Assembly: GCF_017348835.2 (NCBI RefSeq)
Contig: NZ_CP071375.1
Reading direction: 5' to 3' (one strand)
From: Escherichia coli
GTDB taxonomy: Bacteria; Pseudomonadota; Gammaproteobacteria; Enterobacterales; Enterobacteriaceae
DNA length: 64,000 nt
Part shown: piece by piece, positions 13,801-19,800 of the stretch
Numbering within the stretch: the first letter of the stretch is position 1
Layout: each line of letters starts with the position of its first letter
Position numbers: made by a program

Positions 13801-16800
13801 CCGGTCCCATCCGCGAACAAGGCGCAATCACCATCGCCCGTTCCACCACAGAAGGGCTTCCTTTCGCATCCAGAAAAGAGATCAACGCCTCGCCGGTGCC
13901 CAGTTCCTGAATCGCCTTTTCGGTATCAAATGCCGGATTGACCCGCATGGTTTGCGCCGCAGCTTTTACCGCTTTCTGATCTTTGGGCGTAAAAGTCCGC
14001 AAAGCGTGTTGAACGCGATTACCGAGCTGGCCGAGCACGTTATCCGGAATATCGGACGGATTTTGCGAAACGAACCAGACGCCCACGCCTTTTGAGCGAA
14101 TAAGCCTTATCACCTGCTCAATCTTATCCAGCAGTACCTGCGGTGCATCGTTAAACAGCAGATGTGCCTCGTCGAAGAAAAACACCAGTTTTGGTTTCTC
14201 CAGATCGCCCGCTTCCGGCAATTGTTCATACAACTCCGAGAGCATCCACAACAGGCTGGCGGCATACAGTTTCGGCATCTGATAAAGCTTCTCGGCGCTG
14301 AGGATATTGATAACGCCTTTACCGTTGGCATCGGTGCGCATCCAGTCTTTGATATCCAGCATCGGCTCACCAAAGAAGTGTGCTGCGCCTTGCTGTTCCA
14401 GCGACAACAGCCCGCGCTGGATGGCACCAACCGATGCGCTACTGATATTTCCGTACTGATTCTGGAAAGATTTGGCGTTATCGCCGATGTACTGGGTAAT
14501 CGCCCGCAAATCTTTAAAGTCGAGCAGTAACAGCCCCTGATCGTCAGCAATGCGGAAGATGATATTCAGCACGCCAGACTGCACATCGTTGAGATTCAAC
14601 AGCCGCGCCAGCAACAGCGGCCCCAGATCCGAAACCGTCGCCCGCACCGGATGGCCTTTCTCGCCAAAGATATCCCACACCACCACCGGATTGGCATGCG
14701 GTTGCCAGTCATTGACGCCGATATTTTTAAGCCTTGTGAGCAGTTTTTCCGACGCCGTTCCTGCCTGCGCGATACCGGTCAGATCGCCTTTCACATCAGC
14801 CATAAACACCGGCACGCCGATTTCCGACAATGACTCTGCCAGTTTTTGCAGCGTAACGGTTTTACCCGTCCCCGTTGCGCCAGTAATCAGCCCGTGACGG
14901 TTAGCCATTCCCGGCAGTAAAAACAGTTCTGTGTCCGGCGTGCGGGCAATTAACAGGGGTTCGCTCATGAGATTTCCTCCAGTTTCCTGCCTGGAGTATA
15001 GGCAACGGCTGTGCACTCTTCACCGCTAAATTCAGCAGATTGCGAGACGCCTTCCAAAGAGATTTAAGTGCCGGGCGACAGGCACCCGGCAAAGGGATCA
15101 GAAGTCGGCTTTCAGGACCACGCGGTAGCGCGCTTTACCATCGCGTACATGCTGGATGGCGTCGTTAATTTTCGACATCGGGAACAGTTCGGTGGTCGGC
15201 GCAACCTTGCTGCGGGCGGCAAAACGCATCAGCTTACGCAGCTCATAAGGCGTGCCGGTAGCAGAACCAGAGATGCTGCGGTCGCCCGCAATTAACGTAA
15301 AGGCCGGAACAGACAGCGGCGTGAGAACCGCACCGACCGTATGGAAATTACCGCCATAGGTCAGCGCCTCAAAATAAGGCTGCCAGTCGAGGCTGACGTT
15401 CACAGTATTGATAATGAGATCAAACTGCCCCGACAGGGCTTTCAGTGCCTGCGGATCGCGGCTATTCACCACTTTATCGGCACCCATCGCCAGTACTTCC
15501 TGCTCTTTCGCCGGATTAGAACTAAAGGCCGTCACCTCGCATCCCATTGCGTGCAGAAGTTTTATAGCGATATGCCCCAGCCCGCCAATACCAATTACCC
15601 CAACGCGGCTGGTAGCAGTGATATGGTGCATCAACAGTGGTTTAAAGACCGTGATACCGCCGCACAACAGCGGCCCGGTGGACTCGATATCAATATTTTC
15701 TGGCAGTGGAATCACCCATTGCCAGTCCGCACGCAACTTCTCGGCAAAGCCACCGCGATTCATAATCGTCGGCACCGCACCTTGCTCGCAGTTGATCTGA
15801 TTACCGCTAATACAGGCGTCGCAGTGACCACAGCTACGCGCCGTCCAGCCAATCCCGACACGCTGACCGACCTGCAAACCTTTATCCTGCGCGGCGCTCC
15901 CGAGTGCCACCACGCGCCCAATCACCTCATGCCCGGCAACCAGCGGATATTGTGAAAATCCCCATTCGTTATCGATCATCGACAGATCGGAATGACAAAT
16001 CCCGCAGTAATCCACCTGCACTTCAACATCTTGTGGCTTCAGCTCACCGGGATCGTACTCATAAACTTCCAGTTCGCCGCCCGCTTCTTTTGCGGCATAG
16101 CTTTTTATCATCGACATTTTTGGGTCCTTCTCTGGTGTTGTTTGGGAAGTGTAGAGCATGGCAGGGCGGGGTGCCTGGAGTGTGACAAAGGTTACATATC
16201 GCTGAGTGTAATGCTGAAAATTTCAGCACTTAGCGAGGTGGGTGCAAGCTGGCGCTTGCATGGTGGCGTGCGACAGGTATAATCCACAACGTTTTCCGCA
16301 TACCTCTTCAGTGCCGAAGTGGCGAAATCGGTAGACGCAGTTGATTCAAAATCAACCGTAGAAATACGTGCCGGTTCGAGTCCGGCCTTCGGCACCAAGT
16401 TACTAAATTCCTTACAATACAGTTAGTTAGACGATTAAATCTGTCTCTTTTGCCTGTAAGAAATGCTCTGTTATGTCCCTTGAAAAAGCCGCTGTGGTTG
16501 ATAGTGGTAATTGGGATGTTAACTCATAGCGGCGTGTCGTTCCAAGCGTCAAACACGTACTGACTCAACTTGAAAGCTATGACGTAGCCACCGTCTCTAA
16601 ACAATCCCAAAACTTTTAGTGCAGCGCATTTTAGCCCGATGCCCCCATTCTGTCGCCGTCGCGAGACGCCGCAGGGGATAAACAGGTTTATGGTGGTCAC
16701 GGTACTTGCAGACCATATGCAAGCTCTGCCAGCGGTTCGGCCTCGCTCCCCTTGGGTACATGGTCATCCTGATAAGCCTCACTAACTGACATAACCCTGA

Positions 16801-19800
16801 TGAAGTCGCAAGAGGCTCCGCTTGTTGTCTTACCACCAACGGGGCTTTATGGATTCTATTGCTTAATATATGATTGTATCAAACTTAGACTGCATAATTT
16901 AAACGAACATAACAATCAGGCAGGGGAAGAATGATAAAGCCATTTTCTGTGAGGTATGGTCATGTTGACGTTAGAGAGCATGTCCAGCTGAATGATCTTA
17001 ATTCTGATACACGCATAGCATTGTGGAATTGCTTATATCTTTTCCTTTGGACTAACAATCGTCAAACTGCTACAGCAACAAAATGTGCGCAGTCTGTGTG
17101 GATATATTATCTAAATCAACCTGCGGATAATATTCCTCGTTATGAAAGTGGATACAAAAGTGATAAGACGTTGCTGACTGCTATCCGAGATTATATATAT
17201 GGGGAAGCATGGTATTTGGTATATGATTTAATTGAGTTCATCATTGAGAGAACTAATTCATATATTAATCTATCGAAGCATCTCAATTCCATCTTTAAAA
17301 AGCATGGCGTTGGTTATACCATAATAAATGGTTGTATTACTCCTATTTCAAATGATAACGAAATTGAAAGTGTTCAGAACGCAGTTGATAATGGCACTGA
17401 TTCATCGCGTAGCCATTTCGAAAGGGCGTTACAACTAATGACGGATAGAGAGCAGCCAGACTACAGAAACTCGATTAAAGAGTCTATCTCTGCAATTGAA
17501 TCTTTATGCAGGAAAATCACGGGCAATGATAAAGGAACCTTGGGGGCTTGTCTTAAAGCTATAGAGGAAAAAGGATATATACACTCTGCAATGAAAGGCG
17601 CTTTTAGTCAGCTCTATGGTTATACAAGTGATCAGGGTGGAATACGTCATGCGCTAACAGAAGAAGATGTAAATCCTACCTTAGCTGAAGCTAAATTTAT
17701 GTTAGTCACTTGCAGTGCGTTCAGTAATTATCTGTTGTCAAAAATAAGTGATTAATTACAGGTTTATAGTTACGAGTGGGTTAGTTACCCACTCCCTTTA
17801 AAATTATTCACCAGACTCTAATCTTTTTTCTCTTTTCTCATCTCTCCTTTTTATTGCCAAATCGTGTTGCTCTTGCAGATACGTGCGTTCTTCGTTTCTA
17901 TCGCTTGAAGTATATACGTCTGCTTTTACTTTTTTAGCTCCTTGTGCAATAGGTTTCCAATCCTCTCTTATACCTTTAATTTGTTCTGCAATTTGCGTCA
18001 ATGGGCTTCTCGCTCCTAGATAACTTATTCCTTCAAATGTCGCCATGTCATACACATATTCATTTGTTTCTCTATCGTTTGATTTAGGTTTGCTTGCCCA
18101 GCTTATATTAATATTATAAATTTGATCTTTGATTTGTTCATACTTACAGAGATTGCTGGTAAGTGATTGCCCATTTTTTAACACGCTTACCTTACTAAAC
18201 GGAATCTCACTTTTTTCTCTATGCTCCGCATTTACTAGTGGAGGATCAAACACAACCTCAACATTATAGGCAGGTGCGTTCCCTGTATTAGCAATGTTAA
18301 TATCAAAGTAAAAAGCGGCCCAAGGGTTTGGCTCAAGTGTTACAACTATATGGGGTTGAGCTGATGCGTCAACCATTCTTTTTGTCTCGTCTGCTCTGAA
18401 GTGGTGAAGTGGTTTACTGAATTTGGCCACCTGAACAGAGGTGATATGCTCACCTCAGAACAACACAGGTGCTCCAATGAAAAAAAGAAATTTTAGCGCA
18501 GAGTTTAAACGCGAATCCGCTCAACTGGTTGTTGACCAGACATACACGGTGGCAGATGCCGCCAAAGCTATGGATGTTGGCCTTTCCACAATGACAAGAT
18601 GGGTCAAACAACTGCGTGATGAGCGTCAGGGCAAAACACCAAAAGCCTCTCCGATAACACCAGAACAAATCGAAATACGTAAGCTGAGGAAAAAGCTACA
18701 ACGCATTGAAATGGAGAATGAAATATTAAAAAAGGCTACTGTAGATTCAATCTGTCAATGCAACACCCCTTTCAATTATCTCTTTCGGTGTTTTGAACTT
18801 CAGTGTCTTTCTCGGTCTGTTGTTTAGCTGAGCAGCAACCAGATCTAGTTCATGTTGAGTATATTGGGCAAGACATGTCTTTTTAGGAAAGTACTGCCGA
18901 ATTAGCCCATTTGTGTTCTCATTTGTTCCCCGCTGCCAAGGACTCTGAGGATCGCAGAAGTAAACTTTAACGCCGGTGCTGACAGTAAATTCTAGATGTC
19001 TGGCCAGTTCCATTCCTCTGTCCCATGTCAGTGATTTTCTGAGTTCTGACGGTAAACTCAGGAATTTGTCGGTAAGAGCCTGATTTACTGAGACAGAATC
19101 TTTGCCCCTGAGTCTAAGGATGATCGTATAACGTGATTTTCGGTCTACAAGTGTGGCTATATGAGAGTTTTTTGTACCTGAGACTAAATCGCCCTCCCAA
19201 TGCCCCAGAGAGCGTCTGTTATCGATATTTCGGGAACGTTCGTGAATTGGTGTTCCGTTCACTATGTTAATCGTACCTCTTTCGCCTTTGCGGGTATGAC
19301 GCCTGCCATGGCGAAGGCTATGCGACCGTCGCAGATGCTGTATATTCAGGTGGTGTAGCGCTTCACGGCTACGAAAGTACAGCGTTTTATAAATTGTCTC
19401 AGGTGATATTCGCAGCGTTTTTTGACGTGGTTTTGTTCGCCTTAACCATCCTGATATTTGCTCTGGAGACCATTTCATCTCCAGCTTTTCCAGAACAAGC
19501 TTTCGCAATGGTAAATTTTGATCCAGTAAGCACGGTTTTGGCCTTTTCGCCATTCTGTTGGCTCGGTTATTAGCATCAACAGCTTTGTAATAGCGTCTGC
19601 CCCGATTACGCTGAACTTCACGTGAGATCGTCGAAGGACTGCGATTCAGCGCAGTAGCTATCGCACGAATGCTCATTTTGGCTGACAAACCAGCTCGTAT
19701 CTCCTCGCGCTCAGACAGTGTCAGGTGAGCTACAGCCCGCTTATGCTCATGGGGTTTTATGCCGCCAGTATCCCTTAACATAGTGAAGATCGTTCCGGGT

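Follow-up and report, generated by a model that had tools for sequence, protein, structure and literature searches.

Genomic islands at the leucine transfer RNA (tRNA) gene leuX classically begin with an integrase, and a 64,000-nucleotide stretch of the Escherichia coli contig NZ_CP071375.1 (the window) raises the question of why the island that follows its leuX gene does not. A preliminary description had read the 530 bp after leuX (16398–16930), which hold neither an integrase gene nor an obvious coding frame, as a sign that the island is a degraded, immobilised remnant or that its 5′ part was deleted. We arrived at a partly different answer. Positions 16398 to ~16868 are probably the complete tRNA-side arm of a family of ~14-kb satellite-like elements, and the module conserved within this arm most likely specifies an element-encoded structured RNA. 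The part that is missing from the window is the distal part of the element, which is gone at the junction with the insertion sequence (IS) IS911. The features on which the argument draws are as follows; att denotes the attachment site and ORF an open reading frame.

16313–16397, + strand: leuX, tRNA-Leu(CAA), called by ARAGORN and Rfam; the sole tRNA gene in the window by ARAGORN.
16398–16487, + strand: att-proximal part of the arm, ~90 bp, with a sequence that depends on the tRNA targeted.
16488–16602, + strand: 5′ part of the module, with two helices that show compensatory changes, GCCGCUGUG with CAUAGCGGC and CGUGU with ACACG.
16603–16857, + strand: 3′ part of the module, matched by covariance model R1 over all 233 positions (232 bits, E ~4e-61).
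16815–16845, + strand: terminal hairpin, GCUCCGCUUGUUG...CACCAACGGGGC and then UUUAUGGAUUCUAUUG, nearly invariant.
16931–17755, + strand: cargo gene for an AbiJ-NTD4 protein (Pfam E 4e-27; PADLOC candidate defence family PDC-S32, E 6e-104).
17804–18376, − strand: ORF190, a cargo gene for a 190-aa protein that matches no family; in this block it invariably accompanies the AbiJ gene.
18405–20875, no strand assigned: IS911, split by IS30; the element is truncated, and homology to K-12 resumes, at the left end of IS911 (18405).

We compared 16250–18500 with 5,426 complete E. coli genomes. The leuX side was matched in 5,425 of them and the full interval in only 466. At least 80% of the 533 bp from 16398 to 16930 was present in 621 genomes at 95–100% identity, and ~155 of these 621 kept the first 465–475 bp alone, with different genes thereafter. 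In records that lack the window configuration (H4–H24 of a ranked sample of 30), the match ended at query positions 148–160, which correspond to 16397–16409 of the window. Homology to K-12 ended at 16398 and resumed exactly at the left end of IS911 (IS911B) at 18405. In place of window 16398–18404, K-12 carries 10.6 kb extending from intB through yjhE, and this DNA (1492–12125 of K-12 locus L004) is absent from the window. The G+C content is 0.47–0.48 in 16398–16930 versus 0.36–0.39 in the genes after it. Because so few genomes carry either 16250–18500 or the 533 bp, the DNA from 16398 on is accessory and not core. It shows the classical trait of a tRNA island, lying directly at the tRNA 3′ end and being present in some strains only (466–621 genomes). 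The view that accessory DNA begins at the 3′ end of leuX was thus confirmed, and the possibility that the region is core in most E. coli was not.

Neither an integrase gene nor a remnant of one was detected in 16398–16930. We used six integrases as tblastn queries (K-12 IntB, an IntB fragment, a 636-aa leuX integrase and the three element integrases described below); against 16398–18404 the best E value was 3.7, and in the whole window nothing was found at E ≤ 1e-3. Seven ORFs of 31–80 aa in 16398–16930 had no Pfam match at E ≤ 1, and no reading frame was open across homologues of this interval. We considered a coding role for an 80-aa minus-strand ORF at 16597–16839 and rejected it: the ORF is open only in the closest clade, and all frames are stopped in other lineages. 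Beyond one close clade stops interrupt every frame, and the segments vary in length by 1–2 bases, that is, by non-multiples of three. The interval is therefore free of an integrase gene, as had been reported, and also of an integrase remnant or a conserved frame, and the intact integrase that would have contradicted the preliminary description was not found there by tblastn. Its lack of a coding frame reflects the conserved non-coding element that it contains and is not a result of decay.

Three intact relatives reveal the architecture of the complete element. They lie at thrW (strain LWY24, 13.5 kb), glyU (strain 504211, 14.0 kb) and leuX (strain 550, 14.8 kb) and are bounded by perfect repeats of the tRNA 3′ end of 30, 20 and 30 nt, respectively. 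For leuX, the att core is the last 24–30 nt of the gene, and the core is repeated at the distal end of intact elements. In all three relatives the arm is at the tRNA end, inside the att repeats, and a tyrosine integrase of ~400 aa is at the far end, reading inward, 90–150 bp from the displaced tRNA fragment. The three integrases all match DUF6538, a SAM-like domain and Phage_integrase, and in two of the three the DUF6538 score is above Pfam's own cut-off. Other genes encode major head, tape-measure-like or Dit-like, and helicase or replication-initiator proteins, a predicted gene content that makes these three small phage-related, satellite-like elements. Since the integrase stands at the far end in the intact relatives, none is expected beside leuX in this family, which we define operationally as the distal-integrase DUF6538 elements; they give no support to a former integrase within these 530 bp.

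When the three elements were compared pairwise by blastn, the arm module alone was common to all pairs (74–84% identity), and the sole other match was a weak similarity between two of the three integrase genes. Copies of the sub-block ~16679–16868 with ~74–84% identity lie ~280 bp downstream of tRNA-Gly (glyU) and tRNA-Thr (thrW) with unchanged spacing and orientation. Over 475 bp, the strain 550 element and the window are 95.8% identical in the arm, and a K-12-type intB island directly follows the displaced tRNA fragment of the strain 550 element. Sequence words common to the tRNA-side and integrase-side arms of intact elements fall mostly in the first ~90 bp, which hints that the integrase arm sites are probably there. 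In the strain 550 element, the integrase-side arm from the integrase start to the distal att repeat (25659–25792 of locus L021) also contains a GC-rich hairpin with CUUUUUCA after it; a 10-nt word of this hairpin recurs inverted at position 83 of the tRNA-side arm, and the thrW and glyU elements have comparable inverted words at position 88.

Measured against these relatives, the arm in the window is complete. It matches the family covariance model end to end, with 232 bits versus 228 for the arm of the intact leuX element, and its internal motif lies 347 nt from leuX compared with a family median of 348 nt. The leuX-proximal part of the island has thus not been deleted, contrary to what had been suggested. 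The DUF6538 integrase and the distal att repeat, both present in the three intact relatives, are both absent from the window, which therefore holds a truncated family member. A direct repeat of the leuX 3′ end had been proposed as a marker of the far boundary. We found no second copy of the leuX-end 23-mer in the window with up to three mismatches, and a 14-mer gave a chance-level match only. Of the "degraded, immobilised remnant", the immobilised remnant is upheld, given that there is no integrase and no second att repeat, and decay of the 530 bp is not.

The non-coding module spans ~16488–16857, ~370 nt in all, and is widespread at a fixed offset from the att core. The terminal-hairpin pattern was found at 23 loci in one-genome-per-species contigs, from Pantoea, Citrobacter, Kluyvera, Pseudenterobacter, Enterobacter, Kosakonia, Cedecea, Trabulsiella, Buttiauxella, Brenneria and Klebsiella. 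In 19 of the 22 loci scanned the hairpin began 163–504 nt after a co-oriented tRNA gene (381–446 nt in sixteen); the tRNAs were Leu-CAA, Gly-CCC, Thr-CGT, Ala-GGC and Gly-GCC. A second anchor taken from a different block yielded at least 120 metagenome loci. Spacing was determined for 121 metagenome copies among the matches listed. A co-oriented tRNA preceded 70 of them, at 274–401 nt from tRNA end to motif (median 348), and a tRNA 3′ fragment alone stood at that distance in 26, which indicates tandem islands; the remaining copies were cut by the contig end (17) or had neither tRNA nor fragment (8). Two module copies ~1 kb apart on one metagenome contig, L071 (3480–3734 and 4546–4760, the second a weak match of 40 bits), suggest tandem or nested remnants. 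A partial copy, ~74% identical and with no tRNA nearby, occurs on 65 plasmids from ten genera, and these plasmid copies form one IS-associated lineage of fragments. On one such plasmid (L011, 3963–4133 and 5920–6153) the module is split by ISSen3 and followed by relBE.

Among E. coli records, 37 of 40 sampled had no annotated feature under the match, and a collection of sequenced phages gave no match to the module. The Rfam 15 covariance models, run at E ≤ 1 on the window and five other family members, found tRNAs only, plus a spurious match to SCARNA7, a eukaryotic scaRNA, in the window (E 0.84). Literature searches on leuX island RNAs, DUF6538, thrW or glyU satellites and the motif strings returned nothing relevant in open-access full text, and a prior description is possible. 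The module, conserved across many enterobacterial genera and without an Rfam family, is apparently undescribed.

We then considered the evidence that the module folds. A nested structure of eight helices was derived from 27 distinct sequences and turned into the covariance model R1; it was drawn manually, as RNAalifold gave partly different automatic structures on two alignments. All 46 R1 matches in the locus set, and all 92 in a second set that includes 80 metagenome loci, were on the tRNA strand; the K-12 locus gave no match. The pairing and covariation statistics refer to 80 distinct sequences, and values were similar on a set of 35. Standard pairs occupied 93.1% of pair cells compared with 82.4% for shuffled alignments, none of which reached the observed value (0/500), and 32–44% for slid partners. 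The covariation score was 0.293 compared with 0.134 for shuffles (again 0/500) and at most 0.074 for slid partners. Across the 80 sequences 20 base pairs changed on both sides, and compensatory changes keep at least five helices, including the long-range helix (16616–16625 with 16776–16785) that closes the multi-helix fold of the 3′ part. This closing helix exists in at least five versions: GAUCACAC/GUGUGAUC, GAUCAUAC/GUAUGAUC, UUAGUGAAGC/GCCUCACUAA, CAGCAAGC/GCUUGUUG and CAGUGAA/UUCACUG. Its tabulated pairing of 73.6% (alignment A4) and 82.8% (alignment A6) is an underestimate, given that the MAFFT and model alignments shift the helix by one column in Leu-type sequences. The covariation is strand-specific: non-Watson–Crick cells comprised 90 G·U versus 8 A·C, and this excess identifies the tRNA-sense strand as the one that folds. 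Upstream of the module, the att-proximal part has a helix of 16407–16416 with 16455–16464 and a weak hairpin followed by CUUUUG. Some copies carry insertions inside the module, of 48 nt in two copies from viral contigs (L016, 4559–4841; L017, 7742–8022) and of ~75 nt in a Klebsiella pneumoniae copy (L051, 2595–2912), and these insertions are self-complementary hairpins.

The module ends in a hairpin that folds at −17.7 kcal/mol (z −1.8), is followed by UUUAUGG and remained nearly invariant even when sequences were gathered with a different anchor. Family conservation stops at ~16868, ~10–20 nt past the hairpin, and relatives diverge from the window at 16862–16872. What follows is highly variable. 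The first sizeable downstream ORF had 82 distinct forms in 115 loci and lay on either strand; the genes sampled encode TIR, DUF3800, HNH endonuclease, PAAR toxin and DUF4225 proteins, other loci have DUF4145 or RelE/RelB, and the window has AbiJ-NTD4/PDC-S32. Given that the cargo lies in either orientation, a role as its leader is unlikely for the module. The module locates the start of this highly variable slot, which holds several genes of defence and toxin type, with a precision of a few bases, and searches for new defence systems could use it as an anchor. Small serine recombinase genes (Resolvase plus HTH_7) were seen beside the slot at three loci (L006, 8404–8964; L015, 1329–1880; L021, 36830–37462).

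In the window, the arm and its two cargo genes form a remnant that is fixed in ~9% of E. coli genomes. IS911 begins 28 bp upstream of the ORF190 start codon, and a K-12-like fec block follows IS911::IS30. The block arm–AbiJ–ORF190–IS911::IS30–fec was identical in all ten genomic contexts shown, and the ORF190 protein was indexed in 14,857 blocks of the collection. What precedes the arm varies: leuX itself, a 7.3-kb island (Nissle 1917), a CP4-57-like island or a P4-like satellite. At both junctions checked (the 7.3-kb island and one P4-like satellite locus), the arm came directly after a 24-nt leuX-end repeat, and the islands between leuX and the arm each have their own integrase and represent repeated insertions. 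Because varied islands and the leuX-end repeat stand ahead of a constant block, the remnant is old, immobile and used as a flank by later islands. Because the breakpoint coincides with the IS end, we infer that the distal part was lost via an IS911-associated deletion or recombination.

The 7.3-kb island was found directly after leuX, ahead of the arm, in Nissle 1917 (L002, 12712–20001) and in a canine isolate (L005). It is bounded by the 24-nt leuX-end repeat, encodes a 636-aa DUF6538 integrase, NIPSNAP, DUF1643, a serine recombinase, a membrane protein and an HTH protein, and has its DUF6538 integrase at the tRNA end and no module. Within the IS911/IS30 region of the window, 120 bp (19961–20080) stand in place of a 327-bp IS600 fragment of K-12.

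We propose the following course of events. A family of Enterobacterales elements inserts into the 3′ end of tRNA genes (leuX, glyU, thrW and others) with the arm behind the tRNA and a DUF6538-type tyrosine integrase at the opposite end, directed inward next to the displaced tRNA fragment. The variable cargo slot begins directly after the terminal hairpin and is occupied in the window by the AbiJ-NTD4/PDC-S32 gene and the 190-aa ORF. A structured RNA would be transcribed in the orientation of the tRNA, perhaps as read-through from the leuX promoter, and may act in control of the element rather than in cargo expression. Loss of the backbone, the integrase and the far att repeat through IS911 would have left an immobile remnant that became the flank for later islands. 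Going further, the module may belong to an as yet unrecognised class of large structured RNAs, placed directly behind a host tRNA gene by mobile elements that target tRNAs. Such an RNA would be made only or mainly in the integrated state, via read-through from the tRNA promoter, and would report or control the state of the element, with the hairpin marking the entry to a cargo hotspot; candidate roles include repression of excision or replication, interaction with a helper phage, or service as a cofactor of the DUF6538 integrase. We regard this broader proposal as tentative.

Several observations weigh against a structured RNA or against parts of this scenario. When folded alone, the window copy was no better than shuffles (z 0.1), and the same was true for either strand of the core, so the case for structure is a comparative one throughout. 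The sequences fall into few clades, and independent compensatory events are therefore far fewer than the cells counted; alignments A4 and A6 were, moreover, fitted to the model structure. The terminal hairpin shows no covariation, and its tail UUUAUGGA, with 4 T in 8 bases, fails our terminator scan rule of 5 T in 8. The sole + strand promoter match scored 9/12 and overlaps the tRNA end, and no promoter was convincing. An intact element with AbiJ cargo was not found, all ten ORF190 contexts shown being the IS911-truncated block, and for this reason the order of events at IS911 is only inferred.

The main rival dispenses with a functional RNA: the module would act as double-stranded DNA, as a long attP/attL arm to which the DUF6538 integrase, an excision factor and host bending proteins bind. 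The constant distance between module and att core would fit this, the module co-occurs with one integrase subfamily in three otherwise unrelated elements, and the terminal hairpin and several blocks are invariant in sequence and do not covary. Sites in duplex DNA would not be expected to show so strong a G·U over A·C asymmetry, however, nor do they account for compensatory changes in five or more helices, one of them long-range; self-folding insertions are tolerated, and the location of the words shared by the two arms, mostly in the first 90 bp and thus outside the module, counts slightly in the same direction. We consider a purely double-stranded role unlikely. Less likely again, and on balance improbable, is a role as folded single-stranded DNA during mobilisation of the element, such as that of an origin of transfer or of a single-strand initiation signal. 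Conservation of the helices on one strand and the partial copies on 65 plasmids would agree with such a role, and ATCCTG at 16766–16771 is invariant and presumably resembles the nick-site core of IncP-type origins of transfer. But the plasmid copies trace to a single IS-associated fragment lineage, the three intact elements have head and tail-related genes, with neither a relaxase nor a mobilisation gene seen in them, and the frequent G·T pairs, some of them invariant, suit RNA better than DNA.

Two further explanations concern the origin of the interval. The 530 bp could be leftovers of a leuX-adjacent integrase, like intB of K-12 KpLE2, that decayed or was deleted, and a P4-type integrase does lie 260 bp after leuX in K-12 and many strains. 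This is very improbable: the interval has no protein-level trace of the six integrases (best E 3.7) and no Pfam match in its small ORFs, it is 96–100% conserved in 621 genomes with a core ~74–84% identical to the glyU and thrW copies, and the integrase is at the far end in intact relatives that share the arm. Alternatively, the interval could be ancestral chromosomal flank of leuX with the real island further to the right, as the other islands sit between leuX and the block with a tRNA-end repeat in front, as if the block were chromosome. We give this explanation hardly any credence, since only 621 of the 5,426 E. coli genomes have the interval, the same module stands behind glyU, thrW and other tRNAs in many genera, and it lies inside the att repeats of intact elements. 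Two ideas on how a structured RNA might act were also set aside. A guide RNA with a 5′ part complementary to the tRNA end found no support, as Leu- and Thr-type arms are homologous in their 5′ part and the variable loop is independent of tRNA identity. Antisense pairing with the integrase leader was rejected because the shared words are same-sense and not complementary.

Elsewhere in the window, 4.1 tandem copies of a 96-bp unit of the bacterial interspersed mosaic element/repetitive extragenic palindrome type lie between holC and pepA (8948–9339), with a strain-dependent copy number. The segment between IS1F and nanS (30315–33740) is absent from K-12 and stands in place of ~17 kb of K-12 DNA (yjhU to yjhR); it contains a YmgB/AriR-like ORF (31025–31318), a phytase-like gene fragment (32036–32572), a restriction-enzyme fragment and an HNH endonuclease gene (33086–33736).

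A degraded leuX island is in itself ordinary, and the IS911–fec block is the well-known leuX/KpLE2 region. The KpLE2/P4-type leuX islands (the intB region of K-12 and pathogenicity island II of strain 536) use the same site and the same att core, the last ~24 nt, and K-12 KpLE2 has the IS911::IS30–fec–IS1F block in common with the window at 99.4–99.5% identity. KpLE2-type islands, however, start with a P4-type integrase beside leuX, which the window lacks (IntB and the IntB fragment had no match), and the first 2 kb in the window, absent from K-12, belong to a different element family with a far-end DUF6538 integrase. A tRNA-linked island without a tRNA-adjacent integrase thus need not have lost one there, which bears on the prediction of island boundaries and on annotation. 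Phage satellites with defence hotspots, such as the P4-like satellites, phage-inducible chromosomal islands (PICI) and capsid-forming PICI, resemble the present family in being ~10–15 kb long, tRNA-integrated and phage-related, with few structural genes and a sharply bounded slot of variable defence or toxin cargo. In contrast to P4-like satellites and PICI, the elements described here had no Psu, Sid, Delta or alpha primase genes that we could find and carry an integrase of another subfamily at the distal end, their satellite-likeness being read from their genes; the slot is bounded by a non-coding structured module and not by conserved genes.

Bacteria have few large structured RNAs, several of which have opened up new biology. 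GOLLD and ROOL are large structured RNAs beside tRNA genes in prophages, with several helices and unknown function. The module shares with them its large size, its several helices and its tRNA-adjacent location in phage-related DNA, but it did not match their Rfam models at E ≤ 1, has a different host range (Enterobacterales) and keeps a fixed att offset. The P4 CI RNA and the sgm-sRNA of SGI1, a non-coding RNA encoded by a mobile element (PMC9299015), are examples of a mobile element's own non-coding RNA as a core function, which may also hold here; these RNAs are short with known targets, whereas the module is ~370 nt long with many helices and no Rfam match. Finally, 3′ETS-leuZ, a small RNA of E. 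coli derived from a tRNA trailer, likewise lies directly downstream of a tRNA on the same strand, so that co-transcription and processing would be possible for the module too; in contrast to 3′ETS-leuZ, the module, known from sequence alone, is much longer and is supplied by a mobile element.

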